A DNA stretch of 64,000 bases, from positions 1 through 64,000 of IMG/VR virus record IMGVR_UViG_3300017963_000239, one strand, 5' to 3'. Position 1 is the first letter of the stretch, and each line of letters opens with the position of its first letter. This DNA comes from a virus. Both the position numbers and the translations under genes were made by a program. Positions 7,406 through 36,785 of this stretch are shown here, piece by piece. The notes beneath the pieces were generated by a model. That model was not told where the DNA came from. It searched no databases and saw only the letters and a program-made list of their open reading frames with translations.

Positions 7406-7572
7406 GCAGCGTCCAACCGATCCGAGCACACACGCTTTCAGACTTCCAATCTGAGAATACGGGTTCGAATCCCGTGCCCTCCTCCATCGCCTTCGGGCGA
7501 GTAGTCAACGGGGGGCTCGTCTAACGGCTAGGACATCACAGCAAACACCTGCTCTGTTCCCTCGGACGCTGC
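7406..7572 (+). ncRNA. circularly permuted tRNA-Gly(TCC)-like RNA with CCAAC/CTCGG closing stem
   Basis: Order: anticodon arm, T arm, GCCCTCC-T-CCA, hairpin, GGGGGGC, D arm; closed by GCAGCGTCC/GGACGCTGC. Confidence 0.8.
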
Positions 7573-7579
7573 AAAGTCT

Positions 7580-7933
7580 TTACGGTCTGCGAGGGATCGT
7601 CATGCCGCTGTGGGTGCGGATGCCCAGCATCTCCTTCAAGATGCCGAGGGCCTTCTCATCATCGAACTGCTTGCACGAGAACACGTCCATCATGAACGTG
7701 CGTCGCAGCGGCCAGCAGTGGATGGAGATGTGCGAGGTGGAGATCATGGCGTAGGCCGAGATGCCGCCTTCGTCCAAGAACCCCTGGCTGTTCAATTTGC
7801 TCTTGTCGACGGGGATGCGCTTGAAGCGCGGACCGTCGATGACCTCCATGTCGAGCGCTCGCGCCAACGAGCTGAACAGCTCTCGTAGGTGGTGCTCGGT
7901 GAACACGATCTCATCGCGCACTGTCCCATCCAC
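7580..7933 (-). CDS. speD: S-adenosylmethionine decarboxylase proenzyme-like
   Basis: GGISAYAMISTSHISIHCWP..DVFSCKQF; GLHLVVD motif extends upstream of called start. Confidence 0.75.
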   Translation of the reverse strand: MDGTVRDEIVFTEHHLRELFSSLARALDMEVIDGPRFKRIPVDKSKLNSQGFLDEGGISAYAMISTSHISIHCWPLRRTFMMDVFSCKQFDDEKALGILKEMLGIRTHSGMTIPRRP

Positions 7934-8841: not shown

Positions 8842-8918
8842 CGGGACATAGCACAGTCTGGCAGTGCGCGAGCTTTGGGTGCTCGAAGTCGGCGGTTCGA
8901 ATCCGCCTGTCCCGACCA
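8842..8918 (+). tRNA. tRNA-Pro(TGG)
   Basis: Cloverleaf, loop TTTGGGT, CCA. Confidence 0.92.
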
Positions 8919-8968
8919 GCGGCGCACTCGGCTCAATGGAGAGCCATCGGCGTCAGAGGAGAATAGAG

Positions 8969-9049
8969 ATGGAAGCTGAAGCACTGGGACCCGCGGAGAG
9001 GATCATCGACACGGTCCTCACGTACAACGGGAAGAGCGAGGAGAGCTGA
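8969..9049 (+). pseudogene. duplicated, recoded N-terminus of the downstream vWA gene
   Basis: MEAEALGPAERIIDTVLTY then stop vs MDAETLGPAERIINTVLTY at 9051. Confidence 0.85.
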
Positions 9050-9050
9050 T

Positions 9051-10949
9051 ATGGACGCGGAGACTTTGGGTCCTGCCGAAAGGATCATCAACACAGTGCT
9101 AACCTACCAGGACCATCTCTGGCACAACCGTCCGGGGTTCGTCGTGACGGACAACTCGGCGGTGGGCGTCAAGTGGCAGCCGGTGACCACGAAGGACGAG
9201 GACGGCAAGAAGGTCGTCTATCAGGTCCACAAGCGTGGTAAGCGGCGCACTCGGACGAAGCTCGGCACGCTCTGGGCCGACAACACCATTCGGGACGAGA
9301 ACCGACGCAAGATCGGCGAGTACCGACCGGCGGGGCTTTTCCCTGAGGTGGCGACCTGGATGTACAAGCAGGTGGCCGACGTCTGGAGGATGGACAACGA
9401 GTTCGCCGCGCGGTGGGCGTCGTACCAGTTTCCTCAGGACCACAAAGACATGAAGGTCGTGCTTGCGGCGTTCATGCTGGTCCAGTCGCGGAAGGGCGAC
9501 CCCGTTCGAGAGGACGGGCAGGTCTTGTTCCACGACGACGACTTCCGGGAGGTCGGGGAGGCCATGTGTCTCATCCACCGCAGGGACAAGAAGGGCATCG
9601 ACCCGAAGATGCTGGCGCGGATTCGGGACGTGTTGGAGGTTCCTGCCATCGCGGAGCTGAACCGCGAGCTGGGGTTCGGGCGCTCCACGCGCACGCCGTT
9701 CTTGGGCCGTTGGCCGAAGGCGGTTCGGGCGTGGCTCCGATTCCGGGAGGAGAACCTGCCGGTGTTGGAGGGCTTGGTGAACAGTGGTCAGCGCAACATC
9801 GCGCGGAAGCTCGCGAAGGCTGTGGGCTACAAGCCTCAGTCCCCGAAGTTCTTCGAGGTGTTGGGCTGGACGCAGAGCCAGGCCAAGGATGGTCGCAGGA
9901 AGATCGCTCTCGGGCAGGACTTCTCGGGTACGGAAACTTGGGAAGGACTGAGCGAGCAGGAGATCTGCGAGCTGATCATGCGCGAGAAGACCAACTACAA
10001 GCGCATCGTCGGTCTGCTCCCGAAGGACGTGGGGCTGACTCGGGCCATCATGGCTGCGGCTGTGGAGGCGGGCTCCTTGTCCGACAAGGATCTGATCATC
10101 CAGGCGCCGACCCTGGAGGACTTGGGCTTGCTGAAGGTCCAGGAAATCAAGGAGCGGTGGGAGGCGGCCATGAGCCGTGCCGAGGACATGCGGGCGGCGA
10201 ACATCGCAGCTCGGATGCGTACCAAGGAGGGGCGCGAGAAGATGGAGGCCGCGGCCGACACTGCCTTGCAGCAGGCGGCTGAGGAAGAGATGAAGAACCT
10301 TCGGATCTACTTCATCGTCGACCGCTCCGGTTCGATGGACGACTGCATCGAGCGCGCCAAGAGCCACTTGAAGCGGTTCCTGCAGGGCTTCCCGCCGGAC
10401 CGCATCCACGTTTCGCACTTCAACACGGTGGGGCGTGAGGTGGAGATCAAGCACGCTTCCGCAGCGGGCGTCGAGCAAGCCTTCCTAGGCATCCAGGCCA
10501 CGGGTGGGACGAACTACGGCGCCGGCATTCGGGTGCTGCAGCACCGGCCCCCGAAGGACGACGAGGATACGCTGATGATCTTCGTCGGCGATGAGAAGGC
10601 GCACTCCTTCACGCACGACGTGCAGGTGTCGGGTCTGCGCCCCATGGCGTTCGGCTTCATCAAGGTGGAGTCGAACTGGGGCATGGCGGGTCGAGCTGTG
10701 CAGGACACGGCGAGGGAGCTGGGTATCCCCTGCTTCATGATCGAGGAGAGCACGTTCGGCGAGCCTGGCGAAGACCTGGACCCCTATGTCATTCCTCGGA
10801 CGATCCGGAATCTCGTCGCGGTTACTCCGGTCGGGCAGTACCACGGCGTGCAGCGCGTTGCGCCGCGGGTCACGCTGGTCGACCGCATCATGAAGACCGA
10901 CCTGCTCCACAAGCCTGTCTGGGCCACGGAGCTGTCGTCGGCAGCGTGA
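9051..10949 (+). CDS. vWA-domain protein, possibly Ro60/TROVE-like
   Basis: C-terminal MIDAS DRSGSM..GGT..VGDE; long basic helical N-terminal region. Confidence 0.7.
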   Translation: MDAETLGPAERIINTVLTYQDHLWHNRPGFVVTDNSAVGVKWQPVTTKDEDGKKVVYQVHKRGKRRTRTKLGTLWADNTIRDENRRKIGEYRPAGLFPEVATWMYKQVADVWRMDNEFAARWASYQFPQDHKDMKVVLAAFMLVQSRKGDPVREDGQVLFHDDDFREVGEAMCLIHRRDKKGIDPKMLARIRDVLEVPAIAELNRELGFGRSTRTPFLGRWPKAVRAWLRFREENLPVLEGLVNSGQRNIARKLAKAVGYKPQSPKFFEVLGWTQSQAKDGRRKIALGQDFSGTETWEGLSEQEICELIMREKTNYKRIVGLLPKDVGLTRAIMAAAVEAGSLSDKDLIIQAPTLEDLGLLKVQEIKERWEAAMSRAEDMRAANIAARMRTKEGREKMEAAADTALQQAAEEEMKNLRIYFIVDRSGSMDDCIERAKSHLKRFLQGFPPDRIHVSHFNTVGREVEIKHASAAGVEQAFLGIQATGGTNYGAGIRVLQHRPPKDDEDTLMIFVGDEKAHSFTHDVQVSGLRPMAFGFIKVESNWGMAGRAVQDTARELGIPCFMIEESTFGEPGEDLDPYVIPRTIRNLVAVTPVGQYHGVQRVAPRVTLVDRIMKTDLLHKPVWATELSSAA

Positions 10950-10957
10950 GGTGAACC

Positions 10958-11878
10958 ATGGGTTGGAGAGATCTGCTTCAGGCCGATGACGAGACCGTCG
11001 TCTCGGCGTGGGTCGGGGGCAGGACTCTCCGTACCCGAAACCGCACGTGGACCATCGAGGGGCGCCTCCCACCGGAGCACGGCTGGCACTCTTTCAGCAT
11101 CACGGGCCGAAAGGCCCGCTGGAAGGAGCCGACCAACGCTCCGATGGAGGTGCTTTTCGATCTGCAGCGCGGCTACCTCGTCGGGGACCGCCTCGTGGCG
11201 GACAACGTAGAGGTCGAGCTGGACCCCGCGAAGCTCGCGCAGCGCTTCGAGCGCGTGCACTTGGTGGAGGAAGGCTTGGACCGCTTCGCCCGCATCGCTG
11301 CGGGGCGCGTCTGTGACGATGGACCGCTCATCTACGAGGGGCCGGACATGCCGCTCGGCCCGGAGGACGACGTACTTCAGGCATTCCTGGACCGGAAAGG
11401 CACCGTAGACGCCGTTTCGGGGGTTCCCCCTGCTCTGGACGCGGCCTTCCGGTTCGAGTCCTGGCAGCGCTCTGAGGCCGAAAGACGGCGCCGTGAGGAG
11501 CGGGAGCGTCGGGAGCGAGAAGAGCGCCGCAGGCGCATCATGGAGCAGGTCGGCAGCGCAGCCGGTCGGAGGGCCATGGCGCGCGAGGACTTTGGCGAGG
11601 CTGCTCGGGCAGCGCTCGCGATGGGCAACGCCGAGTACTTGGATCATCGGCGAGCTGTAGGACGGAACGAGATGATCGTGCGGTTCCGTATAAACAGGCG
11701 GCGCTTCGAGTGCACCTGCGACGCGGAGACTCTGCGCATCATCGACTCGGGCATCTGCCTGACGAGTCATGACACCGGAAAGCAGTACGACAACTACTTC
11801 ACGTTGGAGTCGTTGCCTGGGGTCATTGAGGACGCGGAGCGTCAGGGCGTGCTCGTGGTGTTCCGCCACGTCGACTAG
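10958..11878 (+). CDS. putative divergent E2-like (Ubl-conjugating) protein
   Basis: C-terminal IIDSGICL resembles E2 G-x-ICL active site; operon context with JAB/Ubl/E1. Confidence 0.45.
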   Translation: MGWRDLLQADDETVVSAWVGGRTLRTRNRTWTIEGRLPPEHGWHSFSITGRKARWKEPTNAPMEVLFDLQRGYLVGDRLVADNVEVELDPAKLAQRFERVHLVEEGLDRFARIAAGRVCDDGPLIYEGPDMPLGPEDDVLQAFLDRKGTVDAVSGVPPALDAAFRFESWQRSEAERRRREERERREREERRRRIMEQVGSAAGRRAMAREDFGEAARAALAMGNAEYLDHRRAVGRNEMIVRFRINRRRFECTCDAETLRIIDSGICLTSHDTGKQYDNYFTLESLPGVIEDAERQGVLVVFRHVD

Positions 11879-11890
11879 GAGCTGAGAGAG

Positions 11891-12514
11891 ATGCACACGA
11901 CGAAGTTCGAGCTGGCGGACGGCCGTGGGGTCACTGTCGCCCACAACGGAGACTGGTCTGGGGACGCAGAGGTTACGTGGACGGAGAAGAACGGCAAGCG
12001 GGCGTGCACGATGGTGCCGGCCGACGTGCTTCTCCAGGTTGGGAACCAGGCGGCGTTCGAGGCCCTGAAGGGGAAGCTCATCAGCTTCATCGAAGATCTG
12101 GAGTGGGAGGAAGAGCCCGAACCGGTCAGGAAGGGGAACGACATGGAAGCTGGAGTGGTTCTCGGGCCGGGCGGCGAGCCGATCTATTGGCACGTTCCTT
12201 CCGACCGCCAAGTGGCGCACATTCCTGACAGCCAAGTGCTGTGGGATGTGTTCTTCAAGTACAAGGAGACGATGACGGGCTTCGCGCACAGTCATCCGGG
12301 CAGTGGGTCCCCGCTTCCGTCCCACATGGACTTGACCACCTTTGCTGCCAACGAAGTAGGACTCGGGAAGCGGTACGATTGGTGGATCGTCACCGGGAGC
12401 GCCGTAGGGCTCGTCCGGTGGAGGGGGCCGAAGAGGCTCGACTACGAAGTGTGGGCTCTGCTGTCTGAGGAGCCGGCATGGGTGAACGAGCTTCGAAGGG
12501 TTTCAACAGGCTGA
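11891..12514 (+). CDS. JAB/JAMM metalloprotease
   Basis: E...HSHP..PSHMD JAMM motif; JAB domain starts near ATG 12143. Confidence 0.8.
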   Translation: MHTTKFELADGRGVTVAHNGDWSGDAEVTWTEKNGKRACTMVPADVLLQVGNQAAFEALKGKLISFIEDLEWEEEPEPVRKGNDMEAGVVLGPGGEPIYWHVPSDRQVAHIPDSQVLWDVFFKYKETMTGFAHSHPGSGSPLPSHMDLTTFAANEVGLGKRYDWWIVTGSAVGLVRWRGPKRLDYEVWALLSEEPAWVNELRRVSTG

Positions 12515-12531
12515 CAGGAGTGGAGGTTGAG

Positions 12532-12858
12532 ATGGTACAGCGAATGCCAGGTGAAGATGGTGACGGAGCGGTCGAGCAGATCATGGACGCCGTGAACGTC
12601 GCACCACAGGACAACGAGGCCGTGTTGGAGATCACCTACGGTGGTCAGCAGGGCACTTTGACCGACCCGGTTCCGTGGGACGCTGCGGACGGCGACTTGA
12701 AGCAGTGGGCGACGGAGGCGTTGCAGGCTGGGGGCATCCCTGGTTTGGACGCCACGCCGGACGCGGACTTCACGGACTTCGTCGTCCACAAGTTCTCCGC
12801 GAAGGACGGCCTGCCCAACAGGGTCGTACTGAGACCCAAAACGGAATACGGGTATTGA
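12532..12858 (+). CDS. ubiquitin-like (beta-grasp) protein
   Basis: Small protein ending LRPKTEYG-Y, between JAB and E1; GGAGG RBS. Confidence 0.6.
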   Translation: MVQRMPGEDGDGAVEQIMDAVNVAPQDNEAVLEITYGGQQGTLTDPVPWDAADGDLKQWATEALQAGGIPGLDATPDADFTDFVVHKFSAKDGLPNRVVLRPKTEYGY

Positions 12859-12891
12859 CCGAATACAGTGTTTGGTTCTACAATACCAAAC

Positions 12892-13818
12892 ATGGTTGAG
12901 GTTGATGTTCGGGCTTTGGCGGAGGGTTATCAGGACGGAGCGAGCGCGAAGAAGCTGGCACGCCAGCACGGTGTGTCGGTTTGGACCGTGCTCGCCCGTC
13001 TGAGGTCCGCTGGAGTGGAGATACGCCCGAGACAGCCCGAGAAGCGTTTGGATCTTCCGAAGCCCGACCACTCGCTTTTGGTCGAGATTGTTGACGGCCT
13101 TCTTCTCGGTGATGGCAGTATTGATCGAAAGGGGGCTCTTCGATTGGAGCAAGCCCGCGACACTACGGGGTGGTTGTACGAGGTGCAGGGGCTCTTGAGA
13201 GCTGTTCGGTGTTCGTCTAGGATCGTTCCTATTCCTCCGAGGGAAAGGCGCATAGAGGATCGTGTGGTGAGATCTTCGGGAGGCGCATTGCTTTACACCC
13301 CGTGCTACGTCGAGTTGAAGAAACAGCGCGCACGGTGGTATCCGAAGGGGGAGAAGCGCGTTCCAAAGGGCATCAAGATGTCTCCGATGGTGCTAGCTCA
13401 GTGGTTGGCCGGGGACGGTACATACGACCATTCGGGGCGCCTACGTTTCTGCACTGATGGATTCAGGCGCGAGGATGTGGACCTTCTCATTCGTGCCCTG
13501 GGGGTGGTTGGGCTACAGGCAACCAGGGCGGCGAGGCCGCGACCGGGCCAGTACCACGTCAACGTGGATCGCCTGGACGAAGCTGTGAAGGTTAAGGCCA
13601 TGATCGAGGACTTGGTTCCTGCGTGCTTCCGATACAAGCTCTCCTACGTGCGACCACCTATTCGGAAGCCTGGGAGGAAGCTGACCGACGAGCAGGTCTT
13701 GGAGATTAGAGAGCGGGCAGAGCAGGGTGAGTCCAAGGCTGCGCTGGCAGAACGCTTCGGTGTGTCCGACACGGCTGCCGGAAACATCGTTAAAAGACGA
13801 ACGTACAAGGATCTGTGA
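12892..13818 (+). CDS. LAGLIDADG homing endonuclease with HTH extensions
   Basis: GLLLGDGSI and QWLAGDG motifs; atypical codon usage. Confidence 0.85.
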   Translation: MVEVDVRALAEGYQDGASAKKLARQHGVSVWTVLARLRSAGVEIRPRQPEKRLDLPKPDHSLLVEIVDGLLLGDGSIDRKGALRLEQARDTTGWLYEVQGLLRAVRCSSRIVPIPPRERRIEDRVVRSSGGALLYTPCYVELKKQRARWYPKGEKRVPKGIKMSPMVLAQWLAGDGTYDHSGRLRFCTDGFRREDVDLLIRALGVVGLQATRAARPRPGQYHVNVDRLDEAVKVKAMIEDLVPACFRYKLSYVRPPIRKPGRKLTDEQVLEIRERAEQGESKAALAERFGVSDTAAGNIVKRRTYKDL

Positions 13819-13826
13819 GGATACCG

Positions 13827-14402
13827 ATGGCACGAGTAGTAGTAGTTGGAGTTGGTGCTTTGGGTTCCCACGTGGTGCAGTACCTGCGCAACGTGGCCGA
13901 TGAGATCGTGGTGATTGATCACGATAGGGTCGAGCGCAAGAACGTGCTGTCGCAGTTCCACGGCAAGGGCACGGTAGGCAAGTCGAAGGTCCAGGCGATC
14001 CAACAGTCGATGAACTTCATGTTCGGTGTGAAGGTCCACACGGTCCCTCACAAGCTCGTGGAGGACAACGCCGAGCAGTTGCTCGGGGGTGCAGACCTCG
14101 TGTTGGACTGCTTGGACAACGGAGAGTCCCGAGCTGTCGTGCAGCGCTACGTCCGTGAGGCCGGTACGCCGTGCTTGCACGGAGCGCTCGACGCGAACGG
14201 CACTTTCGGACAGGTCATGTGGGACGACGAGTTCCACATCGACTACGAGACGACGCGCGGAGGAGCTACCTGCGAGAACGGAGAGCACTTGCCCTTCATC
14301 TCGATGGTGTCCGCTTTCCTGGCGCGCGCCGCACAAGCGTTCCTGACGCAAGGCAAGCAGATTGGGTTCCTCGTCTATCTGGACGGGGCCAAGCGAGTCT
14401 GA
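13827..14402 (+). CDS. E1/ThiF-family adenylyltransferase
   Basis: VVVGVGALGS, IDHDRVERKN..Q, GKSKV, DLVLDCLDN, ATCE. Confidence 0.88.
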   Translation: MARVVVVGVGALGSHVVQYLRNVADEIVVIDHDRVERKNVLSQFHGKGTVGKSKVQAIQQSMNFMFGVKVHTVPHKLVEDNAEQLLGGADLVLDCLDNGESRAVVQRYVREAGTPCLHGALDANGTFGQVMWDDEFHIDYETTRGGATCENGEHLPFISMVSAFLARAAQAFLTQGKQIGFLVYLDGAKRV

Positions 14403-14630: not shown

Positions 14631-14773
14631 GTGACCAACGGATCAGATCGTACATGCAACGTATGCGGGTTCGAGTCCCGTCACTTCCGCCAAACTGGAA
14701 ATGAAGCCCGACTGGTAGGGCACTAGCCTCGAAAGCTAGCACAACGCTAACCCCGGTCTCCTCACTCGGTCAC
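14631..14773 (+). ncRNA. circularly permuted tRNA-Ser(CGA)-like RNA with CCAAC/CTCGG stem
   Basis: T arm, CACTTCC-G-CCA, GGAAATG, D arm, anticodon arm loop CTCGAAA; closed by GTGACC/GGTCAC. Confidence 0.78.
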
Positions 14774-18703: not shown

Positions 18704-18760
18704 CGGTTAAGGCACAGGATTGTGGCTCCTGGTATGCCGGTTCGATTCCGGTCGATCTCC
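18688..18760 (+). tRNA. tRNA-His(GTG)
   Basis: G-1, loop TTGTGGC, C73. Confidence 0.88.
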
Positions 18761-18872
18761 CCGGTGGTCGAGTCCGCTCGGTCACCCCACTACGCCCCTG
18801 GAGCCGGGTACTCCGGCGGGGCCAACAAGGAGAAGAAGAGAGACAAGGGTGTGGCAACCCAGGCAGGTAGCC

Positions 18873-20030
18873 ATGAACAAGGTACACGTGAACGTCGGAA
18901 CCATCGGACACATCGACCATGGGAAGACGACCCTCACCGCGGCGATCACCAAGGTGATGGCGGAGCTTCACGGTGGGAAGGTGGTCCCCTTCAACAAGAT
19001 CGACAACGCACCGGAAGAGCAGAAGCGCGGCGTGACCATCAACACGTCGCACGTGGAGTACGAGTCGGCGACGCGGCACTACGCGCACGTCGACTGTCCG
19101 GGGCACGCTGACTACATCAAGAACATGATCACCGGTGCGGCCCAGATGGACGGCGCGGTGCTTCTGGTCGATGGGTCGCAGGGTCCGCAGGTGCAGACCA
19201 AGGAGCACATCCTGCTTGCGAAGCAGGTGGGTGTGGAGAGGATGGTGGTGTTCATCAACAAGGTGGACATCGCAGACCCCGAGCTGCTGGAGTTGGTCGC
19301 CTTGGAGACGGCCGAGCATCTGGAGGCGCAGGGATACGAGGACTCTCCGGTGGTCCAGGGCTCCGCTCTGAAGGCTCTGGAGGGCTCTGAGACGGGCTGC
19401 ATCGTCGAGCTGGTCGAAGCCATGGACAGGCACTTCCCGGACCCTGTGAGGGACTTCGAGGCGCCTTTCATGCTGCCTATCGAGGGAGTCCACACCATCG
19501 AAGGCCGCGGCACTGTGGTCACCGGTCGTGTGGAGCGTGGTGTGTTGCCTCTCGGGGCGACGGTCGAGATCATCGGTCTGGTGGACGAGGACTCCAAGCC
19601 TCGCCAGGTCGTGGTCACGGGCATCCAGATGTTCCACAAGGACCAACCCGAAGCGCGGGCCGGAGAGAACTGTGGCCTGTTGCTGCGCGGTGTTCGTCGG
19701 GACGAGGTGGTTCGGGGTCAGGTGCTCATCGTGCCGGGCTCCGTGCGGTCTCACATGAAGGCGAAGGCCGAGCTGTTCGTGTTGTCGAAGGAGGACGGGG
19801 GTCGGCACACTCCGATCTTCAAGGGCTACCGCCCACAGTTCTTCTTCGGCACGACCAACGTCACGGGCACCGTGGCGGACATCGGCGAGCTGGACTTGGT
19901 CAAGCCTGGCGAGCACGCCGAAGTAGCGCTGGAGTTGCAGAAGCCTGTCGGCATGGAAGCTGGCATGCGATTCGCTGTTCGTGAGAGCAGCAAGACCGTC
20001 GCTGCAGGTGTGGTCCTCAGCGTCACGTAG
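18873..20030 (+). CDS. tuf: elongation factor Tu (divergent)
   Basis: [58 protein letters not shown]. Confidence 0.96.
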
Positions 20031-36386: not shown

Positions 36387-36732
36387 GGGCTCGATCGGTT
36401 TCGACGTGGAGGAAAGGAAAGATTCGCGTGTAGGCAGCGCTCGACCTGCCTTGATCAATCGAGCAATTTGCAGTTGCCAACGACAACAGCACCCCTCTGG
36501 CCGCGAAGGCGGCCTGAGCGCTGGGCGGGTAGGAGTCCGAGTACCCCGCAGGCGCCAATACCACACGGACTGTGCTCGGGGAGGTTGGCACCGCCGATGC
36601 CCGAGCGAGACTTTCGGTGCTGGACAGGCTGGAGAGACGGCCAAGCCCTGCTGTGAGGGTAGATCAGCTACGCACGTGAACGAGGATCTTGACGGAACTC
36701 GGCGGACCAGGGTTCGATTCCCTGCGGGTCCA
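36387..36732 (+). ncRNA. ssrA: tmRNA
   Basis: 5' GGGCTCGATCGGTTTCGAC, 3' GACCAGGGTTCGATTCCCTGCGGGTCCA with G3:U; tag ANDNSTPLAAKAA* at 36476-36517. Confidence 0.9.
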
Positions 36733-36785
36733 CGAAGTCTCCATTGAGCATTGCAGGGAGCGTCCATAAGAGGTACATTGGTCGA

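Follow-up and report, generated by a model that had tools for sequence, protein, structure and literature searches.

Conjugation of ubiquitin-like proteins (Ubls) in bacteria has so far been associated either with anti-phage defence by the host (Bil, type II CBASS, and probably Bub) or with sulfur chemistry. Here the machinery is owned by a phage, and many huge phages have kept it in this form. The genes concerned lie in a 64,000-nt stretch of DNA (positions 1 to 64,000 of IMG/VR virus record IMGVR_UViG_3300017963_000239; “the window” below), in which six tightly packed open reading frames (ORFs) on the plus strand between 9051 and 14402 include putative genes for an E1-type activating enzyme, a JAB/JAMM protease, and a Ubl precursor. 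An original prediction, made from the sequence alone, had read these as a four-part pathway with a candidate E2 carrier. By comparison with related loci the E1, JAB, and Ubl are far better conserved than could have been known from a single sequence; the E2 assignment was not borne out, and a fifth member (a vWA/MIDAS protein) and a homing endonuclease had been left out of the scheme. Somewhat better than evenly, the balance favors the five genes being a phage-borne module for ubiquitin-like activation and tagging, with a conjugation-type function.

Judged by its parts list, the cassette is nearest to the archaeal SAMP/UbaA/HvJAMM1 and the Thermus TtuB/TtuC plus JAMM systems, which likewise have no recognizable UBC E2 and pair a JAMM peptidase with a small beta-grasp protein and a single-domain E1 of MoeB/ThiF type bearing a cysteine in a loop. 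Those systems are cellular, however, and do without the vWA/MIDAS and Cys proteins linked here; the phage E1 is shorter than theirs; and their Ubls, which also serve as sulfur carriers, have a Gly-Gly end, whereas the phage Ubl ends in Pro-Phe/Tyr-Gly followed by a variable tail, in a precursor or fusion protein.

The likeness to the defence systems is more partial. Bil (BilABCD) also has a Ubl, a JAB peptidase able to expose a reactive C-terminus, and an E1 adenylation domain, but its E1 is a multi-domain protein (inactive and active adenylation domains and a mobile Cys domain) working with a separate UBC E2 (PMC11601596), while the phage E1 is a single 195-aa domain for which no E2 was recognized. 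Type II CBASS shares the JAB peptidase (Cap3) and the E1 adenylation domain, and the PADLOC models for its E1-E2 protein match the phage E1, though by their E1 part only. In that system, Cap2 is an E1-E2 fusion acting on a cGAS-like enzyme, encoded beside a CD-NTase and an effector (PMC11601596, PMC10097602); the phage has a lone E1, no CD-NTase, and no other conserved neighbor. In both Bil and CBASS the machinery belongs to the defending bacterium, here to the phage. Bub (6E/DUF6527) consists of Ubl-E2 and JAB-E1 fusions or an E2-E1 fusion, with a DUF6527 serine protease and oxyester intermediates; it resembles the phage genes in being a very diverged Ubl pathway with a JAB that exposes the Ubl C-terminus by cutting a fusion pre-protein, and it shows that E2-type carriers can escape ordinary motifs (PMC11601596). 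The phage genes are separate, with no DUF6527 among the Pfam matches of the five proteins, and the only fusions seen are of the Ubl with downstream proteins, unlike the Bub architectures.

A five-gene cassette in huge phages

Leaving aside the homing endonuclease, the cassette is about 4.4 kb long and consists of the genes for the vWA/MIDAS protein, a 306-aa protein (p306), the JAB, the Ubl, and the E1 (Table 1). A Ubl-profile search of IMG/VR found 16 loci, all 16 with the five genes in the same order on one strand. A search with p306 found 75 loci (68 viral, and seven on contigs filed under bacterial metagenome-assembled genomes, MAGs). The complete set is in order in 67 of these; of the remaining eight, most are interrupted by a contig end or by the 10-kb flank limit. 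When the same-strand ORFs of 64 non-redundant loci were clustered into families, the five cassette families were each present in 61–64 loci (the vWA protein in 63). The next real family, homing-endonuclease-like, was found in 29, and no other flank family was common to these loci. A relative of the homing endonuclease occupies the position between Ubl and E1 in just eight of the 64, and by this measure it is no part of the system.

That the five genes stay together while their flanks are not conserved points to a selected module rather than a shared phage backbone. The alternative, that they are mere neighbors in such a backbone or that the Ubl ORF is a chance beta-grasp, can draw on the origin of all the loci in related huge phages and on the modest fold evidence for the Ubl. 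It is nevertheless very improbable, and can be considered largely refuted already: gene order is kept among differing flanks, despite insertions that bring the inter-gene spacing to between about 0.2 and 9 kb and protein identities of 35–65%; a Ubl-E1 fusion exists; and loss of the JAB accompanies loss of the Ubl tail, as described below.

The carrier contigs range from 5.5 to 618 kb, and several have terminal repeats. The same kind of dense tRNA array is found on two of the MAG-filed contigs, which are probably phage DNA; no chromosomal copy of the cassette could be established among the loci found. The cassette is usually located within the tRNA arrays of huge phages, with a median of 15 tRNA genes within 10 kb on either side and almost none inside it. 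No match to the whole cassette was found by megablast in 50,697 phage records. By tblastn, Virus Rctr197k is the only annotated phage relative with the cassette, its genes named as hypothetical or ThiF-like; PHROGs gave nothing useful for the cassette proteins beyond a “tail protein” family for the JAB, and no description of the five-gene cassette was found in literature searches.

Two loci have partial duplicates of cassette genes. In L008 (7156–8835) the end of the E1 is duplicated beside a homing endonuclease, and in L011 (7079–7444) the start of p306. These suggest repeated invasion and repair around the cassette.

Table 1. Positions of the cassette genes and of other features in the window.
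Feature	Position	Strand	Characteristics
vWA/MIDAS protein, 632 aa	9051-10949	+	vWA domain at the C-terminus, preceded by about 400 residues; Pfam VWA_2, E 1.5e-8
p306, 306 aa	10958-11878	+	Cassette member; no family match
JAB/JAMM metalloprotease	11891-12514	+	Catalytic core 12143-12514, from internal Met85-Glu86
Ubl precursor, 108 aa	12532-12858	+	Ends RPKTEYG-Y; GGAGG 7 nt before the ATG
LAGLIDADG homing endonuclease with helix-turn-helix domains	12868-13818	+	Between Ubl and E1; Pfam LAGLIDADG_2, E 7.6e-16
E1, ThiF/MoeB-type, 195 aa	13815-14402	+	Adenylation domain only; Pfam ThiF
EF-Tu homologue, full length	18720-20030	+	GTP_EFTU, E 9e-57, and domains 2 and 3; among tRNA genes
Tubulin/FtsZ GTPase-domain protein, 757 aa	41202-43475	+	E 1e-14
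Second vWA-domain protein, 539 aa	44839-46458	+	VWA, E 3e-12; unrelated to the cassette vWA protein
49 tRNA genes (ARAGORN)	5738-47911		HNH and LAGLIDADG endonuclease genes in between
tmRNA	36387-36733		Tag ANDNSTPLAAKAA

The Ubl precursor and its C-terminal tail

The strongest evidence that the Ubl would be processed is the pattern at its C-terminus. The original prediction had picked out a protein of about 108 aa ending one residue past a Gly, and the pattern extends to its relatives. The protein has a disordered N-terminus, a beta-grasp core (residues 29–102), and the tail RPKTEYG107 followed by Tyr108, with Gly107 encoded at 12850–12852. Structure prediction, which had been proposed as a check, did return a beta-grasp model, with modest fold scores; it is this predicted fold, with a flexible tail ending in Gly, that places the protein among the Ubls. 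It joins no known Ubl sequence family: no Pfam family was matched by 45 members at E <= 1, no PDB sequence was matched, and Foldseek against the PDB gave nothing significant with the models of either the Ubl or p306.

Eight database relatives end in RPKT[EP][FY]G plus one residue, which varies in nearly every sequence. Among 68 unique Ubl sequences from the related loci, 66 carry the RPKT[PE][FY]G end, and what follows the Gly ranges from nothing (13 sequences) through a single residue (28) to tails of 2–14 (17) or 32–61 residues (8). When 1.84 billion representative proteins were searched exhaustively with a profile, 310 clusters were returned at E <= 1e-3, and the motif was found in 111 of the 148 newly retrieved best matches, with tails of 0 (8), 1 (32), 2–20 (26), or more than 20 residues (45). 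The 45 long tails are mutually unrelated, and the single-residue ones can be A, R, G, Q, V, K, L, S, D, or F. Overall, the tails run from 0 to about 130 residues and include whole fused proteins; the in-frame fusions after the Gly are diverse, among them RyR-domain proteins and, in P0131, the E1 itself. The tail of the Virus Rctr197k relative is 61 residues long. Ahead of the tail, every sequence with the motif has [PEA]-[FYL]-Gly as its mature end, and none has Gly-Gly.

A fixed Gly followed by arbitrary tails points to a precursor cleaved after the Gly. The precursors of ubiquitin, SUMO, Atg8, and UFM1 have the same design, a fixed Gly and then anything. As in eukaryotic polyubiquitin, the ubiquitin-ribosomal fusions, and the Atg8 and UFM1 precursors, an arbitrary extension would be removed after the last Gly by a dedicated protease, and mature Atg8, too, ends in one Gly preceded by an aromatic residue. 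There is no sequence relation between these proteins and the phage Ubl, however, and their proteases are Cys proteases while that of the phage is a JAMM enzyme. The Ubl represents a new family, encoded as a precursor or fusion like eukaryotic ubiquitin and accompanied by two obligatory partners.

Loci without a JAB gene offer a further comparison. In all three (L020, L023, and L024) the Ubl stops exactly at the Gly, as against 10 of 63 JAB-bearing sequences. The three probably represent one lineage, so they are counted as one supporting event rather than three.

Some of the tails have a character of their own. In L068, L069, L071, and L075, tails of 14–33 residues end in a CxxC stretch (e.g., ...RCPNCGQVHE), and may be small zinc-ribbon peptides freed by cleavage.

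The JAB protease

A JAMM protease had been proposed at this position, and the full motif set is there: Glu86, His133-x-His135, Ser144, and Asp147 are invariant in 40–54 relatives, with a spacing (HxHx8Sx2D) one residue longer than in the classical JAMM motif. The window protein itself scores just under the cut-off for Prok-JAB (PF14464; 21.5–23 bits against 25), but 40 of 40 relatives match this family, the best at E 6e-9. By motif set and family match, the protein is a JAMM/MPN+ metalloprotease. Its profile finds only Rpn11 in the PDB, over the motif, at E 0.2.

In 25 of 26 loci in which the JAB was found, the match begins at residue 75–101; the exception is Virus Rctr197k, with a long, low-identity alignment starting at residue 15. 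Since the relatives start at the internal Met85, the first 84 residues are a lineage-specific extension. A purine-rich stretch is found upstream of both ATGs.

The E1 and the question of sulfur transfer

The E1 matches Pfam ThiF at E 7.8e-26 (91 bits, cut-off 28 bits). The nucleotide-binding motifs and ATCE cysteine on which its assignment had originally been based are present: GVGALGS, DCLDN, and ATCE, the last containing Cys153 (14271–14273). The GxGxxG glycines, Lys, DCLDN aspartates, and Thr-Cys153 pair are invariant in 62 relatives. With this nucleotide site and loop Cys, the protein is a member of the E1/ThiF/MoeB family. From its sequence, the phage protein appears to lack the Arg-finger helix found at the N-terminus of MoeB-type enzymes. 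To our knowledge this is the smallest E1 layout.

Its best NCBIfam matches are to ThiF (7e-24), UbaA (8e-20), and MoeB (3.5e-19), all far below the equivalog cut-offs, and these raise the possibility that the Ubl is a sulfur carrier: it would be adenylated and converted to a thiocarboxylate donating sulfur, for instance for thiolation of the many phage tRNAs or for a thio-cofactor, with the JAB serving just for maturation, as it does in CysO/Mec+ or QbsE/QbsD. The lack of a recognizable E2 fits, a JAB, a Ubl, and an E1 without an E2 being the known layout of CysO/Mec+ and Qbs (PMC1779556), as does the location in tRNA arrays, and host enzymes could still provide and use the sulfur. On balance this explanation is unlikely. 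Known sulfur carriers end in Gly-Gly, whereas the mature phage Ubl would end in a single Gly after Pro-Phe/Tyr. The E1 has no rhodanese domain by Pfam, and the strictly linked vWA protein and p306 show no sulfurtransferase features. The original prediction had noted that no sulfur-carrier genes are nearby, and this extends beyond the neighborhood and sets the phages further apart from the SAMP/Ttu systems: rhodanese (PF00581) and cysteine desulfurase (PF00266) are absent from this record and from four carrier genomes at least 92% complete (200–497 kb), and PP-loop ATPase/thiolase (PF01171) has no match over the cut-off in the same genomes, in searches that covered these three families. The 497-kb carrier genome has one PF01171 match below the cut-off (21.2 bits against 27).

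p306 and the proposed E2

p306 had been put forward as the E2 on the strength of a GICL motif, which is found at residues 265–268, with Cys267 at 11756–11758 and an invariant TLES motif after it. The protein has at least 1319 relatives, with 57–98% identity among the best 120 listed. Cys267, Gly265, Leu268, Leu283, and Glu284 are invariant in 71 unique sequences, one of them just 29% identical, while Cys252 (70/71), Cys254 (53/71), and His271 (40/71) vary. The last two counts rule out a four-ligand zinc site made up of Cys252, Cys254, Cys267, and His271, and a Cys-His protease is ruled out by the absence of any invariant His.

The predicted structure (pLDDT 87.8) has a double beta-barrel (residues 12–130), a long Arg/Glu-rich helix (158–196), and a C-terminal alpha/beta domain (201–306) with the order helix, four strands, Cys loop, helix. 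This order, the invariant Cys267 in a G-[IV]-C-L context resembling the active-site stretch of E2s, and the strict linkage to the E1, Ubl, and JAB are what one would expect of a true but diverged UBC-fold E2 in a eukaryote-like cascade, and highly diverged bacterial E2s do exist in Bub (PMC11601596). Such an identity is nonetheless improbable. The HPN motif is absent from the p306 alignment; 53 members searched at E <= 10 matched no Pfam family (UQ_con, Prok-E2, RWD, or any other); PADLOC and PDB sequences gave no match; and no UBC E2 is found among the best 50 fold matches of 48,161 chains, where equal scores are reached by PepSY, DsbC-N, and further alpha/beta domains of small size. Cys267 lies only four residues past the last strand, and the N-terminal half of the model, double beta-barrel and long helix, is unlike any E2. 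Fold scores for both domains are modest. A protein atlas gave no usable match for p306, and a UQ_con search of five phage records gave nothing, but was uninformative in that the control genomes likewise gave nothing. From the conserved cysteine, p306 could be an E2-like carrier; membership of the E2 family is unproven.

A possible tagging pathway

If the five genes form an activation and tagging module, its first step would be cleavage of the Ubl precursor by the JAB right after Gly107, here freeing Tyr108; the comparative data argue strongly for this. From homology, the E1 would then use ATP to adenylate the freed Gly carboxylate, and a thioester on Cys153 is possible. The later steps are more speculative. 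The activated Ubl might go to a target by way of a further carrier or ligase, for which p306 with its Cys267 is the best candidate; it would then do the job of an E2 without being a recognizable UBC E2. The vWA protein might bind the target or the Ubl, or be the target itself. The position of the module inside tRNA arrays suggests that, during infection, the target may be a component of translation or of RNA handling. Were proteins conjugated in this way, phages would be tagging host proteins or their own during takeover, and the system could reveal a new E2-like carrier and a use of the MIDAS domain in Ubl recognition.

Several observations weigh against a conjugating module. The E1 is nearest to the sulfur-carrier activators ThiF and MoeB, and is incomplete by their standard: its ThiF match spans positions 19–154 of the 238 in the model, with an N-terminal stretch and the C-terminal part missing, and a Ser appears to replace the MoeB-type Arg of NLxRQ. 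No relation of p306 to UBC E2s can be detected, either in sequence or in fold. Finally, the repeated co-occurrence of the five genes is not fully independent, since the huge phages that supply all the loci belong to a single broad group.

The vWA/MIDAS protein and a possible Ro60 connection

The profile of 41 relatives of the vWA protein matches solved vWA domains (E 1e-5), and the MIDAS residues D424, S426, S428, T487, and D514 are all invariant. The layout, in which some 400 residues precede a vWA domain whose MIDAS is DxSGSM, is also that of Ro60, and the protein is collinear with bacterial TROVE proteins: hhalign against ten of these gave a probability of 96.8% (E 2e-10) over columns 107–516. 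With the vWA part removed, a collinear TROVE alignment of about 210 columns is left, which is weak (P 0.004–0.013). Pfam TROVE, however, has no match to the vWA protein, or elsewhere in this record or four related genomes. In a protein atlas, TROVE clusters have feature scores of 0.90–0.92 to the vWA protein. Tentatively, then, “Ro60-like” is a lead rather than a finding.

Ro60 (Rsr) forms particles with Y RNAs, and viral Ro60 genes are known (PMC4201824). The cassette recalls these particles in being surrounded by tRNA and tRNA-like sequences, and 3′ of the E1 there is a weak match resembling YrlA. A stretch directly downstream of the E1 (14631–14773, plus strand) is tRNA-like with a clear T-arm (GGGUUCGAGUCCC), and contains the Rfam YrlA (Y RNA-like) match (14664–14721; 22.8 bits, E 0.4), which is far below threshold; the stretch folds no better than shuffled sequences (z -1.5). 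The closest pointer in the literature is a preprint in which a Ro60 gene and three ThiF/E1 genes are listed for the same Asgard-archaeal viruses, with no connection drawn between them (10.1101/2021.07.29.454249).

It is conceivable, if doubtful, that the cassette encodes a Ro60-like RNA-binding particle coupled to Ubl tagging. The vWA/Ro60-like protein and the adjoining tRNA-shaped RNAs would then select a target in the translation or RNA machinery of host or phage, the minimal E1 would activate the Ubl, and p306, as a new non-UBC cysteine carrier, would hand it over for attachment to that target. We know of no published Ro60 operon with a Ubl, an E1, and a JAB. If true, this would be the first link of an RNA-surveillance particle to Ubl conjugation, and the first case of a virus of bacteria owning a conjugation pathway.

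Genomic context

The source is an 81.9-kb IMG/VR virus record with an estimated completeness of 54%. The window is phage DNA, as had been supposed from the start, by its tail sheath and baseplate gpV-like genes and its listing as a virus; it also encodes a 1611-aa coiled-coil protein of tape-measure size. The tubulin-family protein (Table 1) could be a phage tubulin resembling PhuZ and bearing a long extension. Among the tRNA calls, three on the minus strand (27999–28530) look doubtful, and there is a partial tRNA match at 7424–7475 (24 bits). At 7580–7933, on the minus strand, a 117-aa ORF looks by eye like the small S-adenosylmethionine decarboxylase proenzymes (…TSHISIHCWP…).

Just upstream of the cassette (8864–9107, plus strand), an ORF ending at 9049 holds a near-copy (LGPAERIIDTVLTY) of about the first 20 residues of the vWA protein, which starts directly after it, at 9051. 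The arrangement is a short tandem duplication at the start of the gene, perhaps a scar left by a mobile endonuclease.

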